A DNA stretch of 32,000 bases from Candidatus Kuenenia stuttgartensis (GTDB lineage Bacteria; Planctomycetota; Brocadiia; Brocadiales; Brocadiaceae), in contig NZ_LT934425.1 of NCBI RefSeq assembly GCF_900232105.1, positions 570,001 through 602,000 of the forward strand, written 5' to 3'. This document shows positions 16,001 through 30,625 of the stretch, one piece after another. A program made the translations under genes and the position numbers. The notes beneath the pieces were generated by a model. It worked only from the letters and a program-made list of their open reading frames with translations, was not told where the DNA came from and did no database searches. Each line of letters opens with the position of its first letter. The first letter of the stretch is position 1.

Positions 16001-19000
16001 GGTCGCACCATTTGCAGGACTTGTTGTGCTCACCTCCGGCGGCGTCGTATCGGGCGCTGCATCAGTGGTAAAGCTCAATGTGTAATTGGCCGCCATCGCA
16101 TTCCCTGACACATCCTTTACCCCTGTGGTAACCGTTACTGTGTACATCGTAGAATATGCCAGACTACCTGACGGCGTAAACGTGGCTGTCGTTCCGTTGT
16201 ACGATACCGTTCCTCCTATAGTACCGCTCCCGCCACTCACCAGAAATGTTGACTGTGTTATGCTGCCGGCCTCCATTGCCTCACTGAACGTGCCGGTGAT
16301 GACACTATCAATGGCAACATTGGTCGCACCATTTGCAGGACTTGTTGTGCTCACCTCCGGTGGCGTCGTGTCGGGACTTACAGTGTCATTAAACAAAGAC
16401 AACACCTCCTGGTCGCTCAAAGCCCGATTGTAAACCCGAACCTCGTCGACCTTACCGTCCATATAACCATTATTAACCCTTGAATACCCTATCCTCATAT
16501 CTGAATAGGACGTCAGTGGCACTATTGTGTTCCCCGCAGGATGGAGTTGGGTATTAACTAGCTGTCCATCTACATATAGCTTCTGTTCTCCTGTAGTTTT
16601 ATTATACGTACCTGCAGCGTAATGCCAATTACCAACTGAATTGCTAAAACTATACGTTCCTGTCTTAGTTATCCTGGTTCCACTCACATTTTTTGACGTT
16701 AATATAAAATTAAGTGTGTTCGGGGAACTCTGATGAAATCGTAAATCAAAACCCTCCTGCTGTTGTAAGTTTGAACTCCATCTCCATCCACCGAATATGG
16801 CATCAGCGTTCGCCGTGTCATTTGCATTTTTATAAAACCACGCAGAAACCGAAATCTCGTCATAGTTTAAACGGGGAATCGATACATAATTGCTTGTACC
16901 GTTAAAACCCAAAGCCCCGCCGATTTTCCCTGTTGTCCATGTGGCTCCGGTAATTGTGCCATTTCTGTTATTACCCGACGAATCCGTTGCAGTCGCTCCA
17001 CTACCATCGTCAAACGCATAAAAAGCATGCAAAGCGCTGGATGTATCAGTTGATGGCATACCACTTGATGTTGTAAAGGACATTTTACTCCCATATGTCG
17101 TACCAGCACTGTTCTGCGCCGCTATCCTGTAATAATAAGTCTTTCCTGCCGATAATCCACTTATACCGATGCTTATCGTTGCCTCGTTCGACCCACCCGC
17201 ACTCTGCGTTGATGATTTACTGCCATAAGACCCGCTGGTCTCTCCATACTCGAACCACACCGTTGTCAATAACCCACCGGCATTCACCGTACCATTCAAT
17301 GTAGCAGTGCCAGACGTTACATCAGTTGCTGACCCTGTCGTCGCCGTCGGAATGGTGCCGTCAGGAGTGGTAGCACCAGTATAGATCACGGTAATCGTGT
17401 CTGTCTCCGTATTGCCTGCCCCATCTGTGGCTGTTATCGTGATTATATTCTCTCCACCTGATAAGCCTATGCCGGAAATATTCCAGCTTGTGCTTCCACT
17501 GGCCGTACCGCTTACACCCTTATTATTACTCCACGTTACACTGCTTACACCACTGGCACTATCTGAGGCATTGCCACCCAGGTTTATCATGCTGCTGGTA
17601 GTCTCATAGGTAGCGCTTGAAGTAGGACTGGTTATGGTTGCCACAGGATTGACCGTATCCAGAATGATAGAATCACTGGACGCTTCTGACACATTCCCTG
17701 CGGCATCCTTATACCACACATAGACCATCTTAGTACCATCCCCGCTGCTCAACGTATAGGAAACATCTTCGGTGTAACTGATAGAAGAAGTGACGGACGT
17801 CCACCCAGTGGCTGATGCTGATGGCGTCATGGAACTGGTAGAAAGGAAATATCCCGCCACCCCTACATTATCCGTTGCCGAAAGCGTCAGGGTTACTGTC
17901 CTTGAACCGATATAGGCATCGCCACTGTTTATACTGATCGAACAATTCGGCGCGGTGGTATCAGCGACAGAGGTTGATGACGGTGGCGGCAATTTCCATG
18001 TGCCGGCGAAAGAGCTTATGTAGACATAACTATTGTAAGGATTGACTGATATACCATGGATATTGATATCTGAACCCAGATTCCCATTAATATTCGTCCA
18101 GGTCATTCCATAATCGGTTGAACGAAAAATACCGTTTGAATGACCATACCATGAAGCATAAGCGGCTGCATACACCACATTGGGGTTGTTTGGGTCTACG
18201 GCTACTGAATTGATATCTTCGTATCCGTACCTGCTTTTAGTAATACCGTTGGCATTACCTCGGTATATCGTCTCTCCGCCATTGGCGCTTGTGTCTGTTA
18301 TGATATAGATACCTTCATTCCTCACCGCAGCATAGATTCTGTTTTGGTTTGTGGGGTCTATGGCAATTTGTTTAATATGATTACCACTTTTAACAGGTAT
18401 TGATGGATATAGGTTTGTCGCCGACCACGTGCTTCCTTTATCTGTGGATTTTTGAATATACCAATTACCGGTAGTACCATCTTTCCCCCAGGTATATACA
18501 ATGTCGCCATTCCCCTGAAACATGCCAAGGACGACTTTTGAATTCGCTACTGCAACATACGCATTAGATGTTCTTATATTATCAAACCTGTATTTGCCCG
18601 CATAAAGAATGTTATTATTTTGCGGATGGAAACTCATTAAACAATTTAACCAGTCATTTTCCCCCCCTTCAGTCCCGGATATAGCAGCAAAGGAATCTCC
18701 GCTATTTCTTGATACGGCAACTTTATATTCACCATCTGTCCAATTTCCATTAATTTCAACAATAATATTCCCCTTTATTGCCCCGCCAGCCGCAGATCCT
18801 TTTGGCGTGGCGGTTGAAATACTCTTAAAAGTATCCTCGCCATCCGTTGTTAGCATCGGCCCAAAGTCCATATGGAAAGTTGCCAATACATTTGGATCAT
18901 CTCTATCCCATCCAAACAGAGACGGACTGCTCACTATCCCAGCAGAGCCGGTATAGCCTGTATTTGAATACTTCCAGGTAACACCTCCGTTAGTAGTCTT

Positions 19001-21763
19001 TCTTACAATACTAGCATGCCCACTTATTAACGCCGTATTTTCAATGGTTGGATGAAAGGTAACCGGGACTGCCCATTCTCCTGAACCAGAAAAATCTTGA
19101 GTCCACTTACCGCCTTCAAACTCGGAGCCACATACCCAACCATCGCCATTTTGCTCGTCCATTGTATCCGTCAAAGTCCAATTCGTTCCTCCGTCGTGAG
19201 TATAATAAAGCTGTTTGGTCGGCCATAACCCAAGAAACCCTACCATTAATTTGTCAGGATTTACCGGACTCATCGCAATTTGTTGCGCTTGGCCGGTCGT
19301 TCCGTTACTAACAGGAGATGCCTTTGTTTGCGTGAATGTCAACCCCCCGTCTTTTGATTTATAAACGCCATTAGTATTTGCCGTTGCATACATAATATTG
19401 GGATTGTTGTAATTAATTACCGTCGCGTATGGATGAGATGGTAGCCCTGTTCCTATTTTTGTTACTGTTGCGGAACTGCCGTTATCCACAACCTTGTACA
19501 AGCCCCAGCCGGTTGATACAAATAGGATACTGCTATCAGTTGGATGTACTTTTATATCATACAACCCGTCATAGGCGTCTAAAACATACCCGCCTCCCGA
19601 TTTATTGACCAAATTCCACGTCGTGCCGCCATCGATTGATTTTAAGAGTCCGCCTTCACTCTGCGCCGCGTAAATCGTACTTCCCGCAAAAGCAAAATGA
19701 ATACCGCCCACGGCTTTGTATCTATGAAAATGCGCATCTTTAACCATTGTCCAATTATCGCCACCGTCGGTCGTCCTAAATATTCCTTCCGCGTCATGCT
19801 GTTTGGATATTGGCGTGCCACTGGCACTCATCTCACTTCCGGCAACATAAACGATATTCGGATTTGTAGGATCAACGACTATAGAAGCCCCGCCATTGGC
19901 AAAGAATCCATTTGCCTTTCTTTCCCATTTAATACTGTAAGGGTCTGCATTGGCATTTGTGGTTTTCCATACCTGATTTGTGTCGGAAACTAAATATGCA
20001 ATATTGGAATTGGATGGAGCATAAACAATACCACTTATCAACTGCCATCCCTCGCCCCCTGAAAGCCCCGCCGTCTTCTGAGCTTGCGTTCTTTTGACTA
20101 CCTGCTGCCATGTCTGTGTACTGCCAGATTGTTTAGAGATTATGGCTTTTGTACTCTTTTTTGACGATACACTGTTGCGTGATCCGCCAGCAGGATAGTA
20201 CTCAACCAACGTCGTATGCGTCAACTCACTGCCATTTACTGTTTCATCCGAAGTCTCCGAACCCGATGTCACATCTGACTCTGACTCTGTCTCTGACCCG
20301 GTCTCTACTGTCGACAAAGCACCATCTCCCGATACGGTAAAGATGTATCCTTCACCTATGTTATCCTTGCTCTTTAAACTTACCTCGTTACCAACAATGC
20401 TGACATCGGCGCTCCCATCCCCTGACTCAACAAAATAACCGTCAGTCCGCTGCACCGCGGTTACCGTCTCACCCACATTAAGCGTTATAGCCCCTGACAA
20501 CGTCAAAAACACAGCAAAAAGCTTTCCTGTCTTTGGATGACGTGAATACATGACATCACTCCCCGCATAACTCTTTGTACTATGATAAACACTGCCATCC
20601 CATGTACGTTCACTGAGCGGCACATTATTAAGATTATCCCAGTTGGGTATGCACCTTATGAGTTTGAGTCGGGGAGAAACCTCGGTAATACTCTTAAAAC
20701 CCGACATATCTCCTGTGTCGCCAAACCACCCAAACCAATTATACCAGCCGCCGTTAATGCCAGCCTTGGCTGCAAAAAGACGATTCCTGTATTCATCTGC
20801 TTCGTTTGTTTGGGAGTTGCCAACCTTGTCTTTTGTAATATCTACCCCGGCATTAAAATTGTTGGCATCATCTACATAATTTGTATTTTGCGGGCTTTTT
20901 TGGCTTAGCATATCCGGCGTTAGCTCATCCTTGTCTGCCCGGACTTTTACCTGATATATCCATTCATCATTGTCCGACTCACTATAGAGCAACGTTGGTT
21001 GAACGATCCATTTAGAATTCGTGAATTCCTGAGAAATCCTTGTCCTTAATTTCTTGTAAAATGCAGCCATTCCCTCTGAATACGTTGCATACTCATGGGT
21101 AATGGCGCCATGCACCAAACCCAGATCCGCTCCTGTCCAATAAGACAAATCTACAGATATGTTATTCCCCGTTTCGTCTAATCTGTAAAATTCACCTGCA
21201 AGCTTTGGCTCATCAATTATATATCCGCCAAAGGTGAACGGCAACCCTGGGTTTTCATAACTCTTTGCCAGGCTTATAATATTTTCAACTACCTCATCAA
21301 TAACCGCCTGTTGCTGAAAATCCCACATTACGTAAAATTGCTCTGAAGACCCGGCAGGGTGATAACCTGTCGCCAGATTGTAAGGAAACGGATCATGGCT
21401 TTTCCATACCATACGCTGATTGTAAAATTCCTTAGCTTCCTCTGAAAGAGGCTGCGTAATGTCTATCGCCCTGCTATATCCTGATAAAATCTGTGGATAC
21501 CATTGTGGGTTGATCAGATAATACTTAAGGCCTGTGCAATTGGGATTATTGTGATAGTCTGTAACTTCTGAGGATGGATTTATCGCAATGGAATCATACC
21601 CCATCTGCCTTGCATAGCTAACGTCCTCAGATGGTTTATCATTCCAGTGTATGCCATAAATATTTTGATATGCTTTTTCTTCCGCAAAATTCTTTTCGTT
21701 GAAAATAAAAATATGGGCAAATATTAAAAAGAAAATACTTACGCTGCTGATTCTTAGCTTCAT
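13085..21763 (-). CDS. Giant secreted multidomain surface protein, ~2,892 aa. Order: signal peptide, unassigned ~480-aa N-domain, S/E/T linker, Asp-box (BNR/sortilin-like) beta-propeller region, Ig-like x2, Fn3-like, LamG, Big_5 x2, LamG, Big_5 x4, LamG.
   Basis: The track ORF starts at a TTG at 21796. The ATG at 21763 has AGGAG 8 nt upstream and gives MKLRISSVSIFFLIFAHIFIFNEKNFAEE, which looks like a signal peptide. About nine Asp-box motifs are present (TTDGGDNWT, SIDGGTTWN, SKDGGLTFT, THDGGTNWT, TTNGGVTWK, STDKGSTWS, STDYGMTWT and others). The three LamG modules end in G(K/S)(V/I)DEVR(V/I)YN(R/Q)ALS, which resembles Laminin_G_3. The six units PDTTPPEVSTTSPANGATNVAIDSVITGTFSEAM...TVTTGVKDVSGNAM resemble Big_5/SbsA Ig-like domains. 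No C-terminal anchor or sorting signal was recognised. Confidence 0.9.
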   Translation of the reverse strand: MKLRISSVSIFFLIFAHIFIFNEKNFAEEKAYQNIYGIHWNDKPSEDVSYARQMGYDSIAINPSSEVTDYHNNPNCTGLKYYLINPQWYPQILSGYSRAIDITQPLSEEAKEFYNQRMVWKSHDPFPYNLATGYHPAGSSEQFYVMWDFQQQAVIDEVVENIISLAKSYENPGLPFTFGGYIIDEPKLAGEFYRLDETGNNISVDLSYWTGADLGLVHGAITHEYATYSEGMAAFYKKLRTRISQEFTNSKWIVQPTLLYSESDNDEWIYQVKVRADKDELTPDMLSQKSPQNTNYVDDANNFNAGVDITKDKVGNSQTNEADEYRNRLFAAKAGINGGWYNWFGWFGDTGDMSGFKSITEVSPRLKLIRCIPNWDNLNNVPLSERTWDGSVYHSTKSYAGSDVMYSRHPKTGKLFAVFLTLSGAITLNVGETVTAVQRTDGYFVESGDGSADVSIVGNEVSLKSKDNIGEGYIFTVSGDGALSTVETGSETESESDVTSGSETSDETVNGSELTHTTLVEYYPAGGSRNSVSSKKSTKAIISKQSGSTQTWQQVVKRTQAQKTAGLSGGEGWQLISGIVYAPSNSNIAYLVSDTNQVWKTTNANADPYSIKWERKANGFFANGGASIVVDPTNPNIVYVAGSEMSASGTPISKQHDAEGIFRTTDGGDNWTMVKDAHFHRYKAVGGIHFAFAGSTIYAAQSEGGLLKSIDGGTTWNLVNKSGGGYVLDAYDGLYDIKVHPTDSSILFVSTGWGLYKVVDNGSSATVTKIGTGLPSHPYATVINYNNPNIMYATANTNGVYKSKDGGLTFTQTKASPVSNGTTGQAQQIAMSPVNPDKLMVGFLGLWPTKQLYYTHDGGTNWTLTDTMDEQNGDGWVCGSEFEGGKWTQDFSGSGEWAVPVTFHPTIENTALISGHASIVRKTTNGGVTWKYSNTGYTGSAGIVSSPSLFGWDRDDPNVLATFHMDFGPMLTTDGEDTFKSISTATPKGSAAGGAIKGNIIVEINGNWTDGEYKVAVSRNSGDSFAAISGTEGGENDWLNCLMSFHPQNNNILYAGKYRFDNIRTSNAYVAVANSKVVLGMFQGNGDIVYTWGKDGTTGNWYIQKSTDKGSTWSATNLYPSIPVKSGNHIKQIAIDPTNQNRIYAAVRNEGIYIITDTSANGGETIYRGNANGITKSRYGYEDINSVAVDPNNPNVVYAAAYASWYGHSNGIFRSTDYGMTWTNINGNLGSDINIHGISVNPYNSYVYISSFAGTWKLPPPSSTSVADTTAPNCSISINSGDAYIGSRTVTLTLSATDNVGVAGYFLSTSSMTPSASATGWTSVTSSISYTEDVSYTLSSGDGTKMVYVWYKDAAGNVSEASSDSIILDTVNPVATITSPTSSATYETTSSMINLGGNASDSASGVSSVTWSNNKGVSGTASGSTSWNISGIGLSGGENIITITATDGAGNTETDTITVIYTGATTPDGTIPTATTGSATDVTSGTATLNGTVNAGGLLTTVWFEYGETSGSYGSKSSTQSAGGSNEATISIGISGLSAGKTYYYRIAAQNSAGTTYGSKMSFTTSSGMPSTDTSSALHAFYAFDDGSGATATDSSGNNRNGTITGATWTTGKIGGALGFNGTSNYVSIPRLNYDEISVSAWFYKNANDTANADAIFGGWRWSSNLQQQEGFDLRFHQSSPNTLNFILTSKNVSGTRITKTGTYSFSNSVGNWHYAAGTYNKTTGEQKLYVDGQLVNTQLHPAGNTIVPLTSYSDMRIGYSRVNNGYMDGKVDEVRVYNRALSDQEVLSLFNDTVSPDTTPPEVSTTSPANGATNVAIDSVITGTFSEAMEAGSITQSTFLVSGGSGTIGGTVSYNGTTATFTPSGSLAYSTMYTVTVTTGVKDVSGNAMAANYTLSFTTDAAPDTTPPEVSTTSPANGATNVAIDSVITGTFSEAMDAGSITQSTFLVSGGSGTIGGTVSYSGTTATFTPSGNLSSSTTYTATITTGVKDVAGNGMDADYVWSFTTGASPDSTLQAHYAFDEGTGATATDSSGNNRNGTITGATWTTGKIGGALGFNGTSNYVSIPRLNYDEISVSAWFYKNANDTTNADAIFGGWRWSSNLQQQEGFDLRFYPSSPDRLDFILTSKNVSGTRTTKTGTYSFSNSVGNWHYAAGTYNKTTGEQKLYVDGQLVNTQLHPAGNTIVPLTSYSDMRIGYSRVNNGYMDGKVDEVRVYNRALSDQEVLSLFNDTVSPDTTPPEVSTTSPANGATNVAIDSVITGTFSEAMEAGSITQSTFLVSGGSGTIGGTVSYNGTTATFTPSGSLAYSTMYTVTVTTGVKDVSGNAMAANYTLSFTTGAAPDTTPPEVSTTSPANGATNVAIDSVITGTFSEAMEAGSITQSTFLVSDGNGTIGGTVSCSDTTVTFTPSGTLAYSTTYTVTVTTGVKDVSGNAMAANYTLSFTTDAAPDTTPPEVSTTSPANGATNVAIDSVITGTFSEAMDAGSITQSTFLVSGGSGTIGGTVSYSGTTATFTPSGSLAYSTMYTVTVTTGVKDVSGNAMAANYTLSFTTGAAPDTTPPTVSATSPANGATNVAIDSVITGTFSEAMEAGSITQSTFLVSDGNGTIGGTVSCSDTTVTFTPSGTLAYSTMYTVTVTTGVKDVAGNAMAANYTWSFTTGAAQDTTQQAYYTFDEGRGTTATDSSGNNRNGTITGATWTTGKIGGALNFDGNDYVTIPRMNYDEISVSAWFNKNASGTSVIFGGFIYNADVQLQEGFDLYFNSGTPNRLRFVVVTRNTSGTRTVKDATKDFTDSNGSWYHVVGTYNKTTGEQKLYVDGQLADTQTHPSGNVIVPLTSRNYMAIGTRYTDWGFFRGSIDEVRIYNQALSKEEVLLLFNKDTLSDTIPLEVVMMN
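13790..15073 (-). repeat. Four tandem 321-bp units (107-aa Ig-like domain) in an alternating variant pattern, B-A-B-A in plus-strand order
   Basis: Exact 321-bp periodicity is visible in the track as antisense ORFs starting at 13812, 14133, 14454 and 14775. The units at 13812 and 14454 share the SDGNG/SCSDTTVTF variant. The units at 14133 and 14775 share the SGGSG/SY(S/N)GTTATF variant. This implies duplication of a 642-bp double unit. Confidence 0.95.
14753..15742 (-). repeat. Copy 2 of a ~990-bp near-identical segmental duplication (LamG module plus adjacent Ig unit); partner at 16064-17053, offset 1311 bp
   Basis: Direct comparison: 15061-15140 against 16372-16451 differs at 1 position. 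The LamG protein copies are about 95% identical, with differences clustered at 15390-15429 versus 16701-16740. Confidence 0.9.
15743..16384 (-). repeat. Two tandem 321-bp units of the same Ig-like repeat
   Basis: Same unit as at 13790-15073; antisense-ORF phase markers are at 15825 and 16086. The unit at 16064-16384 is near-identical to the one at 14753-15073. Confidence 0.9.
16064..17053 (-). repeat. Copy 1 of the ~990-bp segmental duplication (LamG module plus adjacent Ig unit)
   Basis: See the partner at 14753-15742. The 1311-bp offset equals 669 bp (LamG module) plus 642 bp (two Ig units). Confidence 0.9.
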
Positions 21764-22345
21764 TGCTATTGCTCCTAATAAAAGATTAACTAACAAACAT
21801 GGTGACCTGGCGAGCTTCGGTATTTCCGAAGCCCCATGGCTTTGCGTCCCAACCTCACGATTGGTTTGCCTTTTTCACGTCTGCTATCTCTTATCAGGAG
21901 TTAGCAAACATAAAACTCAATATTTAGATTTGGCGATTCCTCCCTTCTCACTTAAAAATCTTTATTTACGATTTATCTCTACAAATGAGTCCAGTTTTTT
22001 TAAATGTAACTACAACAACTGCAGCTTTCGCAGTTCGCGCAGATTTTGTAATATTAAATTCCACAAATTATTTTTATCTTTTGTCCCTGTAATCTGTGAA
22101 ATCTGCGGTTACAAACACTTTTATTGGTCTGAAGTTTTACCTCGTTAACTGTTATAAATATCGACAATTCTTGAAAATATTTAATAAAATTATAAAACTA
22201 TTTTTAAGAAAAATATTCTCAAAACTAAATATACTACAACCTAAATTCTGCAATGCAATAGCACGTAGATGAGCGCTGACAAAAGCGGATTAAACAAGGT
22301 GCAAAGGTTGCACATTCTAAAAGCTCATAAGAAGTTAAAATTCCC

Positions 22346-22442: not shown

Positions 22443-23420
22443 ATGATGAGATTACTATTAGATATCGCCCGAAAATATCGTAAAAAATTTCAACATTATC
22501 AGACTTACCAGAAAATAAAATATTTTGAATCTATCAATAATTTTGACCCAAAGAAAAATATAATAATTACAGGATCTCCGAGAAGTGGTACTACGTGGCT
22601 ACAAGAGTTGTTTTGTGACATTGAAAAAACGTATCCGTTGTTTGAACCACTGCATCTTGATGGCTCCCCAAAGTTTAAAGAAATAGGTTTTGAGTGGGGA
22701 CAGTACATTCCAGAAGATTATAATTGGCCTGAAGCAAAGGAGTTATTCGAAAGCCTTTTTAGAGGACAATATTTAACACCGTTCATGATTTCACATGCCA
22801 GGGTAGCGCAATTAAAAAATGCAGATTTCTTAATTATTAAATATGTAAGAGCAAATTCATTATTACCTTGGTTCGTTAGGCAATTCGATATCAGGCCACC
22901 TATTTATATTCTTAGGCATCCATGTGCTGCAATTGCTTCACAGATGAAAATGAACTGGTACACATGTTCAAAATTTACCATACCAAAAACGAAGTTCCCT
23001 GAAAAATATACAAAATATGAACATATATTAAATAATATTAATACAACACTAGAATATGTAGCAGCCAAATGGTGTTTGGATAATATAATACCATTAAATC
23101 ATCATGGAAATAATAGACTATGGATAACCGTTTTCTATGAAAATTTAATTGCGAACCCTCATGAAGAAGTACCCTATATTTTTAATAGGCTCAATCTGGA
23201 ATTACCTCGAAATCTATGGTATAAGGTTAATGTACCAAGTGCTATGACTGGTAGCATCTCGCCATTAAGACAAAACAAAATAGAACAATTAAGTAAATGG
23301 AAAAATGAGTTATCAGAAAGGGATATTGACTCTATCCTGGGTATGCTTAAAAAATTTGAGATAAAAATTTATGATGATAACATTTTCCCTGTTAAAACCA
23401 AGCAAACTCCAGCGAGGTAA
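22443..23420 (+). CDS. Sulfotransferase family protein (PAPS-dependent), 325 aa
   Basis: The 5'-PSB loop is IIITGSPRSGTTWLQELF. The 3'-PB-like region is ILRHPCAAIASQM. It is the only plus-strand gene in the window. Confidence 0.75.
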   Translation: MMRLLLDIARKYRKKFQHYQTYQKIKYFESINNFDPKKNIIITGSPRSGTTWLQELFCDIEKTYPLFEPLHLDGSPKFKEIGFEWGQYIPEDYNWPEAKELFESLFRGQYLTPFMISHARVAQLKNADFLIIKYVRANSLLPWFVRQFDIRPPIYILRHPCAAIASQMKMNWYTCSKFTIPKTKFPEKYTKYEHILNNINTTLEYVAAKWCLDNIIPLNHHGNNRLWITVFYENLIANPHEEVPYIFNRLNLELPRNLWYKVNVPSAMTGSISPLRQNKIEQLSKWKNELSERDIDSILGMLKKFEIKIYDDNIFPVKTKQTPAR

Positions 23421-23596
23421 AACCTCAGACCAATAAAAACCCCCATTTTTTTGTATAGTTCCTCAAATTCTTCAACCGTGGAAACCTTGTATTTCACTCG
23501 TATTTCAAATATCTCTGTTTTTATCTTTCACCATTTTTTGCAGTGCAGAAAGACTTTCAGACTCTCCCTGAACACTTCTTCCTTAAATTTTCAACA

Positions 23597-24733
23597 TCAA
23601 AGCGTACCTCTATATACATCCAGAGTCATTTCCGCTATCGTTTCCCAATTATATTTTTCGGCAATAGTATTTATCTGTATCTTCCTTTGTTCTTCGTTTA
23701 ATGATCTTTGAATAAATCCTTGTATCTTTAATGCAATAGCATCAACATCTCCGGGCTTAAAAAATCTGTCGCTTTCCAACCATACTTCTCTGTTAGCAGG
23801 AATATCGGATGCAATACAGGAAAGACCATAGCTCATCGCCTCAAGCAAAACTATCGGTAAACCCTCATAGTAAGAAGGTAATACAAAAAGCCCTGCGTGG
23901 CTATAAAGCTCCCACAGCGGTTCACCAGTGAGAAATCCTGTCAATATAATATTACTACTTTGGCTCGCCTTATTTTTTAAATCCAAGCTATATTTATCTT
24001 CATGATCAGCCCTGCCCACGATAACCAGTTTCCACTTTTCTGTTAGAAGGTGGGGGTTAGCAGTTGTCAGTTTATTAAAAGCGACAATCAGGTCGTGAAA
24101 CCCTTTTTCAGGCACAAAGCGCCCTACAGCAAGGATATATTTCTCTTTTGCGAGGGCATACTTTCTCAGGGTATTATTACCCGGTAAAATTGCTGGCAAC
24201 ACTACCCCGTTGGGTATTATTGTTACGCTTCTCTTGTATTTTGCATGAATATGATCCGCTATTGTTTGAGAAATAGTGATTATGTCGTTAGCCCATTTAC
24301 TCCCTGCAAGCTCGCCGAGTTTCAAAATACCCTTTGCCAGTATCCCCCACTTCTTTCTTTGATAATCAGGCCCATGATGAGTCATAACTACTTTTAGTCC
24401 AAAAAGCCGGGCGAGTGGTATGAACAAGGATGGTCCTATTGCATGGATATGCAGGATATCCGGAGAAAACTTTTTTGCAGCAAAAATTCCGATAAAGGTA
24501 TGTAAAAATGTCTCAAGGAATTTATTCTTTAGGCATGGCAAAGGAATTAATGTTACCCCTTTATACTCAGTAATATTTATATCAACGTAGGGTTTTCTGG
24601 TAAAAACTATTACCTCGCAACCTTTTTCAACCAATTGAGGATAGAGATTTTCGCAATGTGCCTCCACGCCACCCTGTATGTGCGGAAATCCACGGGTACC
24701 TAGAACGGCTATTTTAAGTTTAGAATGGTTCAT
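23597..24733 (-). CDS. Glycosyltransferase family 4 (DUF1972-type N-domain plus Glycos_transf_1), 378 aa
   Basis: KIAVLGTRGFPHIQGGVEAHCENLYPQLVEKGCEVIVFTR matches the DUF1972 signature (GtrGiP..yGGfE). C-terminal PSYYEGLPIVLLEAMSYGLSCIASD is the GT4 E-x7-E region. The start is ambiguous: ATGs at 24754 and 24733 both lie inside the heptamer array. 24733 is chosen by comparison with the usual family N-terminus. Confidence 0.8.
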   Translation of the reverse strand: MNHSKLKIAVLGTRGFPHIQGGVEAHCENLYPQLVEKGCEVIVFTRKPYVDINITEYKGVTLIPLPCLKNKFLETFLHTFIGIFAAKKFSPDILHIHAIGPSLFIPLARLFGLKVVMTHHGPDYQRKKWGILAKGILKLGELAGSKWANDIITISQTIADHIHAKYKRSVTIIPNGVVLPAILPGNNTLRKYALAKEKYILAVGRFVPEKGFHDLIVAFNKLTTANPHLLTEKWKLVIVGRADHEDKYSLDLKNKASQSSNIILTGFLTGEPLWELYSHAGLFVLPSYYEGLPIVLLEAMSYGLSCIASDIPANREVWLESDRFFKPGDVDAIALKIQGFIQRSLNEEQRKIQINTIAEKYNWETIAEMTLDVYRGTL

Positions 24734-24822
24734 GGATGATGGCTCTTGGCTCATGGCTCATGGTTCATGGTTCATGGTTCATGGCTGATGGCTCATAGGT
24801 TATGGCTCTTGGCTCATGGGTT
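24732..24822. repeat. Array of 13 imperfect heptanucleotide repeats (plus strand ATGGCTC / ATGGTTC / ATGGCTG / TTGGCTC)
   Basis: Read directly: atggatg atggctc ttggctc atggctc atggttc atggttc atggttc atggctg atggctc ataggtt atggctc ttggctc atgggtt. Confidence 0.95.
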
Positions 24823-24834
24823 TTACATCTAAAA

Positions 24835-24862
24835 TCAGCCATCAGCCATCAGCTATCAGCTA
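24835..24862. repeat. Four heptamers in the opposite orientation (TCAGCCA TCAGCCA TCAGCTA TCAGCTA); the last contains the stop codon of 4HB gene 1
   Basis: Read directly. TCAGCCA is the reverse complement of TGGCTGA, so this array is inverted relative to 24732-24822 across a 12-nt spacer. Confidence 0.95.
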
Positions 24863-25234
24863 AATAGTTTTCTTTATTGCATTTATAAGACTTGAAAGCT
24901 GCTTACCGATTGTATCTCCTGCTATTCGTAAATCATTAAGGTTTGAACTGGAAATCCATTTATTTTTGTAAAATATAGTTAGAAAAGTAATTGTTTCAAA
25001 TAGTGACCCACGTGCGATGTACAGGTATTGGATAAATTCTTTTTTAGAATTACGCCCTTTGCCTTCGGCAATGTTTGCGGAAATTGATGCTACAGATGAT
25101 TCTAATTGTTCTATAAGCCTGTAATGATTCCGATTAGTATTCATTATTTCAGCAATATCAATGACACTTACTGCAAAATCTACAGCTTTTTGCCAAACCT
25201 CCAAATCCTCAAAACTAAACTTTATTCCACTCAT
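24860..25234 (-). CDS. Four-helix-bundle protein (23S rRNA intervening-sequence protein / Avd-like family), copy 1, 124 aa
   Basis: FEDLEVWQKAVDF...HYRLIEQLESSVASISANIAEGKGRNSKKEFIQYLYIARGSLFETITFL matches the family signature (DL.VWQKA...QL.RA..SI..NIAEG..R.S.KE...FL.IA.GS..E). Strong SD present: GGGAGGGGAGGAAA-ATG. Confidence 0.9.
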   Translation of the reverse strand: MSGIKFSFEDLEVWQKAVDFAVSVIDIAEIMNTNRNHYRLIEQLESSVASISANIAEGKGRNSKKEFIQYLYIARGSLFETITFLTIFYKNKWISSSNLNDLRIAGDTIGKQLSSLINAIKKTI

Positions 25235-25255
25235 TTTCCTCCCCTCCCTTGACCA

Positions 25256-25297
25256 TCAGCCATGAGCTATCAGCTATCAGCTATCAGCCATCAGCTA
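25256..25297. repeat. Six heptamers (TCAGCCA TGAGCTA TCAGCTA TCAGCTA TCAGCCA TCAGCTA) between the two 4HB genes; the last contains the stop codon of copy 2
   Basis: Read directly. Confidence 0.95.
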
Positions 25298-25669
25298 AAT
25301 AGTTTTCTTTATTGAATTTATAAGACTTGAAAGCTGCTTACCGATTGTATCTCCTGCTATTCGTAAATCATTAAGGTTTGAACTGGAAATCCATTTATTT
25401 TTGTAAAATATAGTTAGAAAAGTAATTGTTTCAAATAGTGACCCACGTGCAATATACAGATATTGGATAAATTCCTTTTTAGAATTACGCCCTTTGCCTT
25501 CGGCAATGTTTGCGGAAATTGATGTTACAGATGATTGTAATTGTTCTATAAGCCTGTAATGATTCCGATTTTTATTCATTATTTCAGCAATATCAATGAC
25601 ACTAACTGCAAAATCTACAGCTTTTTGCCAAACCTCCAAATCTTCAAAACTAAACTTTATTTCACACAT
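25295..25669 (-). CDS. Four-helix-bundle protein (23S rRNA IVS protein / Avd-like family), copy 2, 124 aa
   Basis: The track ORF extends to 25690. The ATG at 25669 (MCEIKFSFEDLEVW) is preceded by the same GGGAGGGGAGGAAG SD as copy 1 and gives the same length. It differs from copy 1 at 6 of 124 residues, and the two genes are offset by exactly 435 bp. Confidence 0.9.
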   Translation of the reverse strand: MCEIKFSFEDLEVWQKAVDFAVSVIDIAEIMNKNRNHYRLIEQLQSSVTSISANIAEGKGRNSKKEFIQYLYIARGSLFETITFLTIFYKNKWISSSNLNDLRIAGDTIGKQLSSLINSIKKTI

Positions 25670-25691
25670 CTTCCTCCCCTCCCTTGACAAT

Positions 25692-25733
25692 CAGCCATCA
25701 GCTATGAGCCATGCGCTAAGAACCATCACCCAT
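25692..25733. repeat. Six heptamers of the same family upstream of 4HB copy 2, running into the last codons of the radical SAM gene
   Basis: Minus-strand reading: ATGGGTG ATGGTTC TTAGCGC ATGGCTC ATAGCTG ATGGCTG. The first two and a half units encode the C-terminal MGDGS-stop of the radical SAM ORF. Confidence 0.85.
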
Positions 25734-26744
25734 ATCCGGCAAGCACAATTCAGGTTCTTTGTTCATCATAACACGTAGTTTATTTTTTACAATCCACTTC
25801 ATTGGAATACGTATATGCTTCTTTATCACAGGCGCTGCATTACCAACCATCCAGCATCGTTTATCGCATGTATCAACGGCACTACGAACTATATCTGCCC
25901 CTTTGCTATTCCAGATATCTTCAAATGAACTTTCTCTAATATTTCCCATAGGCATTTTACAGTTCATGCCATTGCAGGGAAGAACGTCCCCTGATGGGTC
26001 TATAAAACAGGATTCGGAACCCATTTCACATTTTAAAAACCTATTGCCATCATAGATGTAATTCATAAGACCGTAATTAAAATATGCACGGAACCATTTC
26101 TTAATAGATTTCGACTTTAATAATTCTACGATCAGCCTGGAGAACTCTTTACACACCACATCTTTATTTTCAATGCGGTTATCCAGTTTGTAAAAATAGT
26201 GTGAGTTGTGAAGCGTTGCAGTGGCAAACTCATAGCCAAGTACATTTGATAACTCATAGAGTGGTATAAGATCTTTACAATTCATATCCTGGACTGTCAT
26301 ACCAAAGCCAATGTCCTTTAAACCCATTTTTCGCAATGTGAACAGTGTTCTCAACCCTCTGTCAAATCCCTCCGGAATTCCTCTAATAGTGTCATTCGCT
26401 TTTTGGAATCCTTCGATACTTATCCTTATTCCAAGATCAGGATGCTTTTGGCACAGCGCTACAATCCGGTCGGTAAAAAATCCATTAGTACTTATAACTA
26501 TTCGCCTTGTCTTAGGACGTATTGCTTCAATAATTTCAGCAATATCCTGCCGGAGAAAGGGTTCTCCACCGGTAATATTTATAAACCTCAACCCGGAAGG
26601 TAATTTTTCGATATCATTTATAGTAATTTCTTCGCTTGATTTAGTGGGATAATGCCACACATCACACATGTTGCACTTTGCGTTGCATCTGTAAGTAAGT
26701 ATGATACAAATTTCCCTTGGTAGTGGCATTTTCTGATTCACCAT
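25716..26744 (-). CDS. Radical SAM protein with a SPASM/twitch-like C-terminal Cys cluster, 342 aa
   Basis: A CX3CX2C motif is near the N-terminus (YRCNAKCNMCDVW), followed by ITGGEPFLRQD. The C-terminal CFIDPSGDVLPC (C..G-x4-C) plus further Cys residues (CNGMNC, CDKRC) suggest an auxiliary Fe-S domain. Confidence 0.8.
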   Translation of the reverse strand: MVNQKMPLPREICIILTYRCNAKCNMCDVWHYPTKSSEEITINDIEKLPSGLRFINITGGEPFLRQDIAEIIEAIRPKTRRIVISTNGFFTDRIVALCQKHPDLGIRISIEGFQKANDTIRGIPEGFDRGLRTLFTLRKMGLKDIGFGMTVQDMNCKDLIPLYELSNVLGYEFATATLHNSHYFYKLDNRIENKDVVCKEFSRLIVELLKSKSIKKWFRAYFNYGLMNYIYDGNRFLKCEMGSESCFIDPSGDVLPCNGMNCKMPMGNIRESSFEDIWNSKGADIVRSAVDTCDKRCWMVGNAAPVIKKHIRIPMKWIVKNKLRVMMNKEPELCLPDMGDGS

Positions 26745-27151
26745 AGTTTGTCCTTTTTTAGTAAAAAGAAGTTTTTAAAGTAAGTGAGTAACTTTACGCT
26801 GGCATAGCCAGAACCAAACAAGCACGAAACAAATTCTAATGACAAAATGATTTGAAATGCTAAACAAACGCATCTTTCGTATTTCGCGCTTCGTATTGTT
26901 TTGCCTGCCCGTGCGTGATCGCACGCAAACAGGGATGCTTTGGATTTGTTTTGAATTTTATGCTTTGTAATTAGGATTTGATTCGGATTTCGTATTTAGC
27001 ATTTTCGGATTTTACCATTAAATATTTTGTCAAAAAAATGTAAAGGAATTACTGATAAGGTACTATTACATATTTATTCGCCACACTAAGATACTAAAGG
27101 CGCGAAGCATTATTTCTTCTTTTCTTTGAGGCTCTGTGGCTTTGTGTGAGC

Positions 27152-28069
27152 TTATTTTTTTCTCGCCATTAGCATAACACCAAGCATTTTCATTTCTGAA
27201 GAATCCAAATTCCTGAATTTTTTATTTAGTCTCAGCTTAACTCTTTTTAAATATTCTTCTTCCACAACAATAACAGGTTCAATTATTACATCAACCCAAC
27301 CTTTTTTTTCTAACATATCTTTATACTCAAATGCCCTTACTCTATTTGGAGAGCCTTTAAACTTAAAGGTATTCCAAAACCAATCACTGTACCGATATAT
27401 ATTTAAAGGGTCACGATCTCTTATCCAGGAGGTGTGTGTCTTCAAATCAATTAATGTAACTAATACCCCCCCCCGATTAACTACATTGCTAAGTTCCATG
27501 AGAGTTCTTTCGACATCTGTAAAATGTTCAAAAGCCGCCTGGCTAAAGACAACATCAACCTTCTCTTTAATTTTTGAAATCGCAAAACCTTTATCTACAA
27601 TATAATTTATCTCAGTGTATTCCCTTTTATGGCACTTACTCAATGTTTCCTTTAAATGTTCAATATTACAGTTTGTATAACGTTTCTTTAATCGTTCAAA
27701 TAATTTGTCATAAAATTCTACTGGGGACGAAAAGGCTAACTTATTAACATCCAGTGCAATATACTTTTTCGCGCCAAGCGCCAATAATATCAAACCGACT
27801 CCAAAATCCGGACCGGGACCAAGCTCAAGGACTATTTTGTTCGTCAAAGGTTTTTCATCATTAGAATAAAAACGAAGATATTCAATCCAACTATCAACAA
27901 CCTTGAAATCATAATCAATAGACCGCTCTATTTCATTGATAGAAAAAGTTCTGGGCGTCTTATAACCAAAGAAGCTATGTCTCAAATAATTCAGTATAAT
28001 AAATACTGCACCAATAAGATGGTATCTAATATTTTTAACGTCTTCCGGTTTGACTGTTTTTATGTTCAT
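27152..28069 (-). CDS. Class I SAM-dependent methyltransferase, 305 aa; contains a G9 homopolymer tract
   Basis: Motif I is VLELGPGPDFGVGLILLALGAKKYIALDV. Also present are VDVVFSQAAFEHF and VNRGGVLV. The ATG is 1 nt after the upstream stop (TGAcATG). Confidence 0.8.
   Translation of the reverse strand: MNIKTVKPEDVKNIRYHLIGAVFIILNYLRHSFFGYKTPRTFSINEIERSIDYDFKVVDSWIEYLRFYSNDEKPLTNKIVLELGPGPDFGVGLILLALGAKKYIALDVNKLAFSSPVEFYDKLFERLKKRYTNCNIEHLKETLSKCHKREYTEINYIVDKGFAISKIKEKVDVVFSQAAFEHFTDVERTLMELSNVVNRGGVLVTLIDLKTHTSWIRDRDPLNIYRYSDWFWNTFKFKGSPNRVRAFEYKDMLEKKGWVDVIIEPVIVVEEEYLKRVKLRLNKKFRNLDSSEMKMLGVMLMARKK
27466..27474 (-). repeat. Homopolymer C9 on the plus strand (G9 on the coding strand) inside the methyltransferase CDS
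   Basis: Counted directly: taata ccccccccc gatt. The codons are CGG GGG GGG GTA (R G G V). It is the longest G/C homopolymer I found in the window. Confidence 0.95.
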
Positions 28070-28070
28070 G

Positions 28071-29318
28071 TCAATATTTTCCTATCGCTGATTGATAAAT
28101 GTTTATTAATCCCTGATAATACTTTTCAGCGTTCAAATTTTGCTCTACAAATACCCTGGCATTTTCCCTCATCTCTGCGACTTTACCAGGGTTATCCAAT
28201 ACGTATCTTATCTTTTCAGCCAGCTCATGGGCATTTCCTGATTCAAAAGTCAATCCTGTTATTCCCTCTTTAACTAATTCCGGAATTCCACCGATTTTTG
28301 CCCCGATAACTGGGACGCCAAGGGCAAAGGCCTCTAATACTGACATGGGATTATTTTCATACCACTCGGAGGGAAGAACAACAGCCAAACATTTTTTTAT
28401 CTCTTTATATAACGCCTCGCCTTTTATATATCCAGGGAATTGAATATTATTACTCCCATCCGATTTAGCCTTTTCTTCAAGGTCCCCTTTTATTGGCCCA
28501 TCACCGATTATCTTAACCTCGACTTTGCGGTTAGTATTTAGCAACTTTGTAGCTTTAATGAGTGTATATAATCCTTTCTCCGGCGCTAGTCTACCAAAAT
28601 AAACGAGGGAGTTCTCACGACCATTTTCCCCGTCTTTCACTTTTCCAAATTTCTTTATATCAATAAAATTAGGCAAATGAATGATTTTCTTCCTGAAACC
28701 CATCCCCGCCAGCTTTTTTTTCAGGAAAAAGCTTGGGGAAATGAAGGCATCCACATTGTCGTATATGTCAAAAAACCTGTGATGCACATACATCTCCAAT
28801 GCAGCAAGACAGCTTTTAGCAAGTGATCCTTTGACGCATTTGTTTTTGATTACTGCTAAATAGTTCCCCCCGGAACAGACCTCACAGTTTTTACCATTAG
28901 CCATCATCAAATAAGAGGCGCAAACCATCTTATAGTCATGAAGCGTCATCACAACAGGTATCTTTCTTTTTTTTAAAATATGCAAGATTGAAGGGGAAAT
29001 CTGATGGTGGATGTTGTGGAGGTGTGCAATATCAACGGGGTATTCATTCAACAATTTAGAAAGCAATTTCTTTGCCTTCAGAGAATAAAGAATCCTGCCT
29101 GTGCTTTTTAGTTGGTTTATCACGCCATTGCTACTCGTATTCAAGTCTACATAAGGCATGAAATAATCCTTGGTTTTACAGGATAGATTTTCCGGATGTT
29201 GCATGGAGAAGAATATAGATTTGTGACCGTGAGATTCCAGTATTTTTGCCGTCTCAAAGTAAACAGTCTCACACCCGCCACGCATATAATGAAATTTATT
29301 GATGTTAAGGATATTCAT
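28071..29318 (-). CDS. Glycosyltransferase family 4 (group 1), 415 aa
   Basis: C-terminal VVLPSEWYENNPMSVLEAFALGVPVIGAKIGGIPELVKEGITGLTFESGN is the GT4 E-x7-E region. The N-terminal half is GT-B-like. Confidence 0.85.
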   Translation of the reverse strand: MNILNINKFHYMRGGCETVYFETAKILESHGHKSIFFSMQHPENLSCKTKDYFMPYVDLNTSSNGVINQLKSTGRILYSLKAKKLLSKLLNEYPVDIAHLHNIHHQISPSILHILKKRKIPVVMTLHDYKMVCASYLMMANGKNCEVCSGGNYLAVIKNKCVKGSLAKSCLAALEMYVHHRFFDIYDNVDAFISPSFFLKKKLAGMGFRKKIIHLPNFIDIKKFGKVKDGENGRENSLVYFGRLAPEKGLYTLIKATKLLNTNRKVEVKIIGDGPIKGDLEEKAKSDGSNNIQFPGYIKGEALYKEIKKCLAVVLPSEWYENNPMSVLEAFALGVPVIGAKIGGIPELVKEGITGLTFESGNAHELAEKIRYVLDNPGKVAEMRENARVFVEQNLNAEKYYQGLINIYQSAIGKY

Positions 29319-29320: not shown

Positions 29321-30490
29321 TTACAAGTATTTTTTGAATTCGATATATCTGGCTTCCCAGGAATTTTCACTTATAAAGTGTTTAAACTGGTCATCCGGAA
29401 TTGCGCTTAATTTATTTTCGCCTTTAAACAGGGAATCCTGGACAAATTTAATGAACTCTTCTCCTGTATGGGCAACATATAAATATTTTTCATATTCAAG
29501 GATATCAGGTAATGCGGTTGAAACTATGGGCTTTTTAAAATACAGGTACTCAAAGAGTTTCGTTGGAAATACCCCCTTCCCGTGCTCGCTCAATGCATAT
29601 GGAATAATAAACAAATCCATGCAGTCCATATATATTGGAAGCTGCTTGAAATGTTTCCAACCAAGAAAAACAATATTATTACAATCGAGTTTCTTCTTTG
29701 CTTCGGATGTTTCACTTCCAATTAATATCACCGTAGCCGCAGGTATATCTACTGCAAGTTTTCTAACAAGGTCGAAGTCAAAGGTTTGATGGAAACTGCC
29801 GATATAACAAATTCTATTATTGCCCATATTTGCCAAATCGCCAGGTATTCCAACATCTTTTATTCTGTTAATATTATAATTCCCGATATCTATTCCTTGA
29901 GGTATGCGTACTACATTTTTATTCAATTCCAGTTTTTCACTAAAAATGGTTATTGAGTCAGCGATAACCAGATCAACCTTTTTTGCTATGTTTTTATCGT
30001 TAAAAACAACTTCTGGCGGAAAGTATTTATTGAATTCAAATCTCTGTACACAATCGTATATTCTTTTTACGGCAGGAATTTTATCAAAAATATCGTTCAC
30101 ATAATTCGCTGGATGGCTAATAATAACACTATCAAAATGGTTTATTTTGTACTTTTTCATTATTTTTCTTATCTGCAAAAGTGCTAACTTCGCATTGAGG
30201 AATCGAAAGATTCCTCTTTGAAGAGGGAATATCTTTAATTGTATAAAACAAAGATGCTTCATAGTAAATCGGCCTTTTCCACCAACGTTTCTAACCAAAA
30301 AGAATCTTTTAATGAATGCTTTAAGCATTTTGATAATTCCCACATTTTTAGCACTTATTCTTTCAATGTAAAATACATTAAAATCTTTAACCAAGAATTC
30401 GACTATTGTTTGTTGTCGTTGTTTTAATAACTCCCAATCACGAATAGAAAATGAACCTATAATCAAAATATTTTTATTTTTTGTATCCAT
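29321..30490 (-). CDS. Putative GT-B glycosyltransferase (group 1-like, TuaH-like), 389 aa
   Basis: ICYIGSF...VILIGSE...IVFLGWKHFKQLPIYMDCMDLFIIPY...FPTKLFEYLYFKKPIVST resembles the C-terminal nucleotide-sugar-binding half of GT1/GT4 enzymes. The N-terminal half is divergent. Confidence 0.65.
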   Translation of the reverse strand: MDTKNKNILIIGSFSIRDWELLKQRQQTIVEFLVKDFNVFYIERISAKNVGIIKMLKAFIKRFFLVRNVGGKGRFTMKHLCFIQLKIFPLQRGIFRFLNAKLALLQIRKIMKKYKINHFDSVIISHPANYVNDIFDKIPAVKRIYDCVQRFEFNKYFPPEVVFNDKNIAKKVDLVIADSITIFSEKLELNKNVVRIPQGIDIGNYNINRIKDVGIPGDLANMGNNRICYIGSFHQTFDFDLVRKLAVDIPAATVILIGSETSEAKKKLDCNNIVFLGWKHFKQLPIYMDCMDLFIIPYALSEHGKGVFPTKLFEYLYFKKPIVSTALPDILEYEKYLYVAHTGEEFIKFVQDSLFKGENKLSAIPDDQFKHFISENSWEARYIEFKKYL

Positions 30491-30625
30491 TAAAATCTTT
30501 TCTGGTTAATCACCTCTTAAAACGAGCTACTATTAAAGTGGTACAATAATTAATTATTTAAAATTCTTACGCCGCCTAAAGATACCGTAGGATATTCGTA
30601 TGATTCATACCTTTCTCCATTCATA

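Follow-up and report, generated by a model that had tools for sequence, protein, structure and literature searches.

What kind of genetic unit sets two nearly identical genes for a small four-helix-bundle protein of family PF05635, bracketed by arrays of 7-nt repeats (heptamers), between a radical SAM gene and a glycosyltransferase gene of a surface-glycan operon? The question is raised by the genome of the anammox planctomycete Candidatus Kuenenia stuttgartiensis, in a stretch of 32,000 nt (contig NZ_LT934425.1, positions 570,001 to 602,000) that is referred to here as the window. Our answer has two parts. The cassette is probably a self-contained insertion of the kind known from the open reading frame (ORF)-bearing intervening sequences (IVSs) of 23S rRNA, located here in a polycistronic glycan mRNA. 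Furthermore, the heptamer-bracketed design is typical of stand-alone PF05635 genes across phyla and is not peculiar to the window locus. Loci from other strains and relatives carry the labels L001 to L221.

The cassette and its two neighbours are built of the following parts.

25716 to 26744, minus strand: radical SAM/SPASM (rSAM) gene, 342 aa, Pfam PF04055 and PF13186.
25716 to 25718, minus strand: TAG stop of the rSAM gene, which together with the last 5 codons (DMGDS-type, ...LPDMGDGS) lies within the 5' arm of the cassette.
25687 to 25737, minus strand: 5' arm D1, made of degenerate direct heptamers, GATATGGGTGATGGTTCTTAGCGCATGGCTCATAGCTGATGGCTGAT, from pattern search and repeat finding.
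25670 to 25688, minus strand: Shine-Dalgarno (SD) region of copy 1, GTCAAGGGAGGGGAGGAAG, with two overlapping GGAGG 8 and 3 nt before the ATG.
25295 to 25669, minus strand: upstream PF05635 gene (copy 1), 124 aa, MCEIKFSF..., PF05635 E 6.6e-30, TIGR02436 E 1.7e-30.
25253 to 25297, minus strand: middle direct heptamer array D2, about 6 units (period 7, 6.1 copies in Tandem Repeats Finder, TRF), beginning at the TAG of copy 1.
25235 to 25252, minus strand: SD region of copy 2, TCAAGGGAGGGGAGGAAA, from sequence inspection.
24860 to 25234, minus strand: downstream PF05635 gene (copy 2), 124 aa, MSGIKFSF..., PF05635 E 7.6e-29, TIGR02436 E 2e-29.
24834 to 24862, minus strand: post-stop direct heptamer array D3, about 4 units by TRF, beginning at the TAG of copy 2.
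24820 to 24833, minus strand: 14-nt loop of the 3' hairpin, TTTAGATGTAAAAC, kept with one C/T change in paralogue L011 (6409-6424).
24722 to 24819, minus strand: 3' arm I, 13.6 inverted heptamer units (CCATGAG/CCATCAG/CCATGAA/CCAAGAG), TRF score 106.
23597 to 24733, minus strand: GT4 glycosyltransferase gene, Pfam Glycos_transf_1 / Glyco_transf_4.

A domain scan of the flanking ORFs agrees with an earlier, sequence-only reading of this DNA that the cassette lies between, and in the same direction as, a radical SAM gene and a glycosyltransferase gene. That reading had also described two 124-aa ORFs with 6 residue differences in an exact 435-bp tandem duplication. Pairwise comparison bears out the ORFs and the 6 residues, and TRF finds 2.0 copies of a tandem unit at 24834-25712, its period exactly 435, with 95% matches and 0% indels, but the copies are not identical, since they differ at 13 nt (96.5% identity). 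Six of these changes are synonymous and 7 nonsynonymous, which suggests moderate purifying selection on the window copies. CTSATRG heptamers lie before copy 1 (25737-25687), between the copies (25297-25253) and past copy 2 (24862-24834), which leaves each ORF flanked by direct repeats at either end. Both TAG stops open a TAGCTGA unit, and GTCAAGGGAGGGGAGGAA(G/A) stands 5' of each ATG; the described order of heptamer array, strong SD and ORF with its stop in the next array can thus be read at each copy. Across the 32-kb window a two-unit heptamer pattern has 23 matches where 0.78 are expected, all of them in 24736-25715 apart from a few with 2 mismatches. The bracket had been taken to consist of direct arrays only, and here the description has to be corrected: the last and longest array, 24819-24722, is the reverse complement of D1, D2 and D3. 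Together D1 and array I form a 47-nt inverted repeat, I1, that is 79% complementary, and inverted repeats I1-I21 join array I to D1, D2 and D3.

When the 1,061-nt stretch is folded to minimum free energy, D1 and the distal part of I come together as the outermost structure, in helices of 17 bp (25734-25718 with 24747-24731) and 10 bp (25713-25704 with 24761-24752), and D2 pairs with the proximal part of I over 13 bp (25265-25253 with 24791-24779). The D1:I duplex has an energy of -66.3 kcal/mol against -32.8 +/- 4.7 for shuffles, and the local D3-loop-I hairpin folds with z = -3.96. The insert of about 1,016 nt (25737-24722) is enclosed by complementary termini, as 23S IVSs are. Its neighbours are protein-coding genes, in place of helix 9, 25 or 45 of 23S rRNA; an Rfam scan of 23400-27300 returned no rRNA or other family, its single sub-threshold chance match being P26 (26 bits against a gathering cut-off of 36). 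No intrinsic terminators or cassette-specific promoters exceeded the shuffle expectation in a scan of the cassette.

Two relatives carry the orthologous genes without the cassette. At L218 the rSAM protein is 80% identical and its gene overlaps the orthologous GT4 gene by 20 nt; at L219 it is 84% identical and the GT4 gene lies 75 nt away. Neither rSAM-GT4 junction holds a PF05635 gene or heptamers. Homology between the window and these loci ends after ...ELCLP and restarts at KIAVLGTRGFP, and the rSAM proteins of the empty sites have C-termini of their own (...LHNGKHND in L218, ...FPGRN in L219), in a protein that is otherwise 72-86% identical across phyla. The empty junctions and the break in homology argue that the window unit is an insertion, from which the rSAM gene takes its tail and stop and the GT4 gene its head. 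Both GT4 start codons, 24754 and 24733, are in frame and overlapped by the 3' arm, which codes for the N-terminal extension back to ATG 24754. The sequence-only reading had suggested that the pair is an inserted module rather than a glycan enzyme, that an empty site might be found in relatives, and that the ends of the neighbours had been remodelled; the ortholog comparison supports it on all three counts, down to the last rSAM codons and the first GT4 codons.

Within the Kuenenia lineage, 18 contigs encode a protein identical to the downstream copy. The rSAM-GT4 site holds one copy in 4 assemblies and two in 6, as in the window, and the proposed duplication is supported. Divergence between paired copies is lowest in L010 (3 nt) and then rises through L001 (10 nt), the window (13 nt) and L002 (16 nt) to L006 (17 nt). 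The L010 allele resembles a one-copy allele of the L004 type after a recent duplication, and the range of divergence suggests that duplication occurred more than once or that the copies exchange sequence. Either would be expected if the direct arrays flanking each ORF recombine, and duplication and deletion of the 435-bp unit probably use D1-D3 as substrate.

The heptamer counts of every array vary among assemblies, as does the unit order of array I, and the rSAM product ranges from 317 to 349 aa following these counts. Since the locus is a surface-glycan operon and the unit numbers alter both the rSAM C-terminus and the GT4 N-terminus, array slippage might be thought to toggle either gene and so to vary the surface glycan. 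We consider phase variation of this kind very improbable. The rSAM stop and conserved core are untouched and just a short non-conserved tail varies; the arrays offer an ATG every 7 nt, hence in every frame; and the same cassettes stand in housekeeping operons (accB-accC, metK-ahcY), where switching is implausible. For GT4 the idea is rejected, as the fixed ATG 24733, past the array, is in frame at any unit number.

Paralogues in the Kuenenia lineage, 85-91% identical, bring the number of contexts to four; among the matches listed, the one-genome-per-species scan contains at least two loci of this lineage. One paralogue lies between GT4 and epimerase genes (L011, strain CSTR1), one between Wzz and TPR genes (L216), one beside a DDE transposase gene (L215) and one at the same rSAM site of a more distant relative (L217). 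All four have CTSATRG-type units upstream and CCATSAG-type units downstream, and the D3-loop-I hairpin of L011 is nearly base-for-base that of the window. The expectation that other four-helix-bundle genes would share both flanks and SD holds for the flanks; the strong GGAGG SD belongs to the rSAM-site copies (window, L001-L010), and L011 lacks it, with a shorter GGGAGG in L216 and L217. Several copies at unrelated sites, together with empty sites, give the cassette the distribution of a mobile element. In the sister species Candidatus Kuenenia sp. Bin_40 (L038, 760-3400), a 611-aa DDE transposase of an insertion sequence separates the rSAM gene from a frameshifted four-helix-bundle gene, which shows decay of the cassette at the same rSAM-GT4 site.

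How general this design is was measured in 80 loci among the matches listed (relatives of 32-91% identity, one genome per species), with arrays called by TRF and PF05635 genes by a hidden Markov model (HMM) built from the matches. A period-7 array lies within 150 nt upstream of the gene at 55/77 loci and within 150 nt downstream at 59/77; arrays stand on both sides at 51/76 (67%), from a set of 78 loci of diverse phyla, compared to 7.1% of random windows in the same loci. More than half of all period-7 arrays (156/293) fall within 200 nt of a PF05635 gene end, in zones that make up 9.3% of the bases (binomial p = 5e-81). Most flanking arrays have period 7 (133/180), with 9 of period 8 and 15 of period 9. 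The PF05635 gene at L016 (1143-1616), for example, has 8-nt units, the two of which do not look like clean reverse complements, and at L086 (2885-3428) the 9-nt arms are inverted copies of one another, so that period 7 is preferred and not fixed.

The arms of a locus match each other. The median ungapped complementarity score is 14 for own arms and 7 for arms of different loci, and the median duplex energy is -66.8 kcal/mol for own arms and -48.9 for mismatched ones (p = 3.6e-11). They are also polar, with G>C upstream at 37/43 loci and C>G downstream at 36/43, and closely spaced, the array ending about 26 nt before the start codon and beginning about 10 nt past the stop. Co-directional neighbours are found upstream at 61/68 loci and downstream at 55/69; sugar-nucleotide and polysaccharide genes are the commonest, and housekeeping operons such as metK-ahcY occur as well. 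Conserved polarity, tight spacing to the ORF and co-directional operon position speak for transcription of the arms together with the gene and for their pairing in the mRNA, though none of the three proves that selection acts on the pairing.

Heptamer type follows protein similarity (Mantel rho 0.46, p <= 5e-4): exact 7-mers are common to 86% of pairs at 65% protein identity or above and to 4% below 35%. Lineage heptamers include AGGGCGG/CCGCCCT, TTGGTTT/AAAACCA, GGGAGCA/CTCCCTG, GTCAGGG/ACCTGAC, AAAGCTC/CTTTCAG and AGCTCAT/ATGAGCT, and the closest relatives among the matches listed (62-68% identity, from Nitrospirota, Omnitrophota, Desulfobacterota and Dadabacteria) have AGCTSAT-type units. 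Paralogues within one locus have different arms, each self-matching; at L086 one has the 9-mer pair GCGAGACGA/CGTCTCGCC and another GAGGTCA/CTGACCT. These patterns show that gene and arms are inherited and transferred together. Additionally, of the arrays not adjoining the gene, 38% have a 7-mer in common with the local PF05635 arms, against 9.8% for arms of other loci. Two lineages offered side observations. Cassettes with AGGGTTC/CCTGAAC arms (L089, L094, L078, L077) stand at metK-ahcY in Verrucomicrobiota, and the same arms and ahcY neighbour on a contig binned as Nitrospirota (L077) suggest transfer or mis-binning. In Nonlabens sp. (L027, 2031-2885), nine AAAGCTC arrays recur at intervals of about 105 nt, a higher-order repeat that adjoins the PF05635 gene on its 5' side, and a NusG/UpxY-like gene lies downstream.

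Heptamer arrays have been known since 1990 in cyanobacteria and later from Xanthomonas, Geobacter, Beggiatoaceae and Bacteroidetes; we know of no function or binding partner for those of bacteria. In Xanthomonas, about 186 arrays of GGGAATC and 70 convergent pairs per genome are transcribed and lie mostly between co-directional genes (PMC4692102), and intergenic heptamer arrays of TAACTGA in Beggiatoaceae (PMC4679880), GGACCGG arrays in Geobacter (PMC2700814) and arrays in Nostoc (bioRxiv 10.1101/2022.06.06.494920) have been described. None of these four papers mentions PF05635. The window arrays share their marks, namely tandem 7-nt units, co-directional genes, variable number and convergent pairs. 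We predicted that the Xanthomonas PF05635 gene, XCC0516, would be bracketed by GGGAATC, and the prediction was borne out: the orthologue lies between accB and accC, with CGGGAAT x4.4 just upstream and CCCATTC x4.3 just downstream.

2429 to 2872 of L221 (Xanthomonas campestris GCA_035012225.1): XCC0516-family gene in the conserved accB-accC operon, bracketed by GGGAATC, an orphan repeat that has been published as G-quadruplex-forming.

The start annotated there, ATG 2501, looks too far downstream, as the frame of the crystallised protein extends back into the upstream array.

Arrays of the window type also occur without a gene. When metagenomes were scanned for runs of at least three GCTSATRG units, most of the arrays recovered formed hairpins without cargo, the inverted partner lying no more than about 100 nt away. 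Such hairpins, two inverted heptamer arrays around a short loop (L068 at 2099-2552; L095, L099, L115, L119, L163 and others), occur commonly between the genes of soil and sediment bacteria; several of them have a G-rich arm that stops a few bases short of the next start codon. One hairpin (AGCTCAT units, loop, ATGAGCT units; L106, about 7900-8100, metagenome contig JABAOF010000545.1) seems to lie within the frame of an adenylation domain of a non-ribosomal peptide synthetase, flanked by ...PELTAEKFI and LYKTGDLGRW..., and may have been inserted in frame into a variable loop of the protein. A G-quadruplex (Rehm et al.) was rejected as a general explanation of the arrays, the Kuenenia unit CTGATGG having no G-tracts.

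The abundance of arrays away from PF05635 genes, and the general over-representation of heptameric simple sequence repeats in bacterial intergenic DNA (PMC4692102), would fit neutral repeats that accumulate in any intergenic spacer and meet the gene by chance. We find this hardly credible in view of the roughly 10-fold enrichment at PF05635 gene ends, the inverted, locus-specific pairing of the two sides, the conserved G/C polarity, the empty orthologous junctions devoid of heptamers and the success of the Xanthomonas prediction. Chance and phase variation are both unlikely.

For PF05635 itself we know of two crystal structures, of no function outside the Avd branch of diversity-generating retroelements (DGRs), and of no enzymatic activity. 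Membership of the window proteins in this four-helix-bundle family, as first proposed, is confirmed by HMM and fold alike. The two ORFs score 100.5 and 103.9 bits for PF05635 (cut-off 33.8) and 102 and 105.4 bits for TIGR02436 (cut-off 24), in a family with at least 2,873 relatives at E <= 1e-5 in one search. An AlphaFold2 model of the downstream copy (pLDDT 89) has helices at 12-31, 38-60, 64-90 and 96-122, and Foldseek aligns it with XCC0516 (2GSC, TM 0.85), BT_0352 (2RLD, 0.79) and Avd (4DWL, 0.78), the first two being structures of 5 chains each. The matches to Avd of the Bordetella phage DGR, at 13-14% identity, include ribonucleoprotein complexes (8UB7). Ten positions of the NIAEGKGR...R.S..E core (N54, I55, E57, G58, K59, G60, R61, R75, S77, E80) are invariant in 38 homologues, and the conservation seen between phyla points to strong selection acting on the family. 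With a strong SD, intact ORFs and purifying selection throughout the family, the protein is probably made. Judging by the modelled fold, it is a subunit of the Avd/XCC0516 type and so most likely a nucleic-acid-associated factor. The PADLOC defence and PHROGs phage profile libraries gave no match for the cassette proteins.

A DGR at this locus was rejected. No reverse transcriptase domain was found in the ORFs of 453-10207, 11780-12832 and 22443-29318; ORFs 29321-31975 were covered through the pre-computed annotation of L003 (proteins 100% identical) and the 2903-aa ORF at 13085-21796 in part, through L001. There is no template/variable repeat pair either; apart from the 435-bp duplication, the window's direct repeats of 45 nt or more are all domain repeats of the 2903-aa gene.

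A rival reading is a partnership in which the PF05635 protein would act in trans on RNA or single-stranded DNA to bind, maintain or spread the heptamer arrays. Those flanking its own gene would be the home copy of a family scattered over the genome, with the cassette as the autonomous member and the cargo-less hairpins as non-autonomous ones. This would resemble the repetitive extragenic palindromic sequences (REPs) and their REP-associated tyrosine transposases (RAYTs). We hold both parts of this proposal to be tentative and rather doubtful. It would account for the co-variation of heptamer type with protein lineage, the self-matching arms of paralogues in one genome, the sharing of 7-mers by distant arrays (38% vs 9.8%), the abundance of cargo-less hairpins of the same heptamer type, and the identity of the XCC0516-orthologue arms with a repeat present in about 186 arrays and 70 convergent pairs per genome (PMC4692102). 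The fold relative Avd belongs to an RNA-protein complex (8UB7), and a binding protein has been postulated in heptamer papers (bioRxiv 10.1101/2022.06.06.494920; PMC2700814). Simple co-inheritance of gene and arms, however, explains the co-variation equally well, the protein has no recognisable catalytic motif, and in the 32-kb window the heptamers are confined to the cassette.

Under the explanation that we favour, an insertion of the 23S IVS kind, the unit comprises, in order, a G-rich direct heptamer arm, an SD, a PF05635 ORF and a C-rich inverted heptamer arm. The arms of the transcript would fold to a long imperfect double-stranded stem enclosing the ORF or ORFs. This stem is probably an RNase III substrate, by analogy with the IVS stems of Coxiella, Leptospira and Salmonella; cutting it would detach the insert from the cistrons on either side, so that an operon could tolerate the insertion. 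The Kuenenia version has an extra direct array, D3, just past the stop, which leaves each ORF with direct heptamers before and after it. Slippage or unequal recombination from one such array to another could give the 435-bp duplication and the one-copy/two-copy polymorphism, and slippage inside the arrays could change the unit numbers and rewrite the rSAM C-terminus and GT4 N-terminus. The steps that we infer are that the arms fold in vivo, that RNase III processes the stem, that both copies are translated, how the repeats recombine, and any role of the protein.

Several observations weigh against this explanation. Non-Watson-Crick positions of the arms show no excess of G·U (59) over A·C (79) in 58 loci, as would be expected if complementarity were maintained in the sense transcript alone, whereas an excess of G·U would be, and sense and antisense arm duplexes do not differ significantly in stability (p = 0.11). 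A sense-strand, RNA-specific pairing signature is unsupported by these counts and energies, and with no gain on the sense strand, pairing could matter in DNA as well as in RNA. RNase III processing of the window stem is deduced from other IVSs and not from transcripts of this locus, and the Coxiella IVS protein is apparently not made (PMC4990558). About one quarter to one third of the sampled PF05635 genes have no detectable arrays. Heptamer repeats are, moreover, a wider phenomenon than the cassette: 0/40 interpretable loci of the metagenome scan had a PF05635 gene nearby, which rules out that the GCTSATRG type is exclusive to it. Finally, no target-site duplication is present at the window junctions (...TTGCCG|GATATGGG and CCATT|CTAAACTT), and no transposase or integrase is associated with the cassette.

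Some of these points lend themselves to an element that works at the DNA level, a reading we regard as possible, if rather unlikely. The arrays would be the terminal inverted repeats of mobile DNA that forms hairpins or resembles MITEs (miniature transposable elements with inverted repeats), with the PF05635 gene a passenger and the RNA stem a by-product, and the arms would serve recombination or transposition instead of RNA processing, which we rate no higher. Terminal inverted repeats of 47 nt and 79% complementarity are present, as in MITEs; orthologous sites differ in presence and absence; several insertion sites occur within one lineage; a sense-strand G·U bias is lacking; a hairpin was apparently inserted in an adenylation-domain frame (L106 near 7969); and transposases adjoin some copies (L215, L038). 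The missing target-site duplication and the lack of an associated transposase family tell against such an element too. So do the arms, which are slippage-prone units and not fixed termini, and their polarity in the coding direction and co-directional operon embedding, which would be unexpected, though possibly inherited. The DNA-level element and the partnership of protein and repeats are the main rivals, and neither excludes an insertion of the IVS kind.

Beyond this locus, the results amount to a rule: stand-alone PF05635 genes lie between inverted, polar, lineage-specific heptamer arrays, published orphan repeat families included. Apart from the incidental Coxiella observation, we found neither this rule nor any link of PF05635 to heptamers in the searchable literature, which mostly leaves out subscription journals. 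Once gene and repeats are taken as one unit, whose arms are inverted, whose polarity is fixed and whose heptamer is specific to the lineage, two open questions become a single testable one, and the ORF-bearing 23S IVSs are explained as one special form of a general cassette that invades operons. XCC0516 with GGGAATC in tractable Xanthomonas, and RNase III assays on defined stems, provide experimental handles. In Kuenenia the result is a recombination-prone, strain-variable insert that reshapes the ends of two glycan genes. A further step, which we think unlikely to be right, would make PF05635 proteins and the orphan arrays (cyanobacterial short tandemly repeated repetitive sequences (STRRs), Xanthomonas GGGAATC, Beggiatoa TAACTGA and others) the halves of one system. 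If so, every lineage of the protein would have a 7-nt repeat of its own to recognise, maintain or spread, the PF05635 gene would sit in the loop of a hairpin of that repeat, cargo-less hairpins would be non-autonomous derivatives, and 23S rRNA IVSs would be one niche among those occupied by the cassettes.

The surroundings of the cassette deserve brief description. The surface-glycan operon had been called otherwise tightly coupled; the spacing is indeed tight, except for a 407-nt gap 5' of the rSAM gene. This gap, between a methyltransferase gene and the rSAM gene (26745-27151), holds short degenerate repeats (AAATCCG x4, CACAAAGC) unrelated to the cassette heptamer, and in L001 the methyltransferase is truncated at the same position. 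On the minus strand at 13085-21796 lies a 2,903-aa ORF with six 321-bp (107-aa) tandem domain repeats (13762-16338, 84-97% identity), probably a large surface protein beside the glycan operon. An IS110-family transposase gene (11780-12832, minus strand; DEDD_Tnp_IS110 and Transposase_20) stands between sugar-nucleotide genes and this giant repeat protein.

Several known systems resemble the cassette in part. Integron cassettes, consisting of an ORF and an attC site, are similarly small, promoterless and co-directional, with an imperfect inverted repeat, tandem arrangement and strain-variable presence. They differ in that attC is a single 3' site used with an integrase; here there are two tandem-heptamer arms and no integrase.

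Avd of DGRs works as a pentamer bound to reverse transcriptase and RNA. The window protein shares its four-helix-bundle fold (TM 0.78 to 4DWL), but at 13-14% identity there is no sequence-level match, and the window has neither a reverse transcriptase nor a template/variable repeat pair.

REPs, bacterial interspersed mosaic elements and RAYTs (REPIN-RAYT) are alike in their possible working. There, too, structured repeats lie between co-directional genes, a single-copy gene is flanked by inverted copies of a dispersed repeat, and the repeat type goes with the protein lineage. RAYTs, however, are HUH tyrosine transposases with catalytic motifs, whereas PF05635 proteins are small helical bundles; REPs are fixed palindromes and not tandem 7-nt arrays, and action of PF05635 proteins on the repeats is a proposal by analogy.

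Closer still are the published heptamer arrays: Xanthomonas GGGAATC, the Nostoc/Calothrix STRR GGGGAYT and others, Beggiatoaceae TAACTGA and Geobacter GGACCGG. Like those of the cassette they are tandem 7-nt arrays in intergenic DNA, mostly between co-directional genes, transcribed, variable in number and often in convergent pairs (PMC4692102, PMC4679880, PMC2700814). They have been treated as stand-alone repeats, whereas here the arrays bracket a PF05635 gene.

The nearest counterparts are the ORF-bearing 23S IVSs of Coxiella burnetii, Leptospira, Xanthomonas and Brucella, in which a PF05635 ORF lies within complementary termini that form a long stem, and which are sporadic in distribution and look horizontally acquired. 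In Coxiella the likeness extends to the repeats, as two to three strain-variable tandem GACAGAT heptamers lie between the 5' end and the S23p ORF and RNase III cuts at the first of them (PMC4990558). The window unit, in contrast, lies in an mRNA between protein genes and not in helix 9, 25 or 45, and has two long heptamer arms, a strong SD, a duplicated ORF and a presumed rather than observed processing. The locus itself is thus a further member of a known gene family, in a setting like that of a known element.

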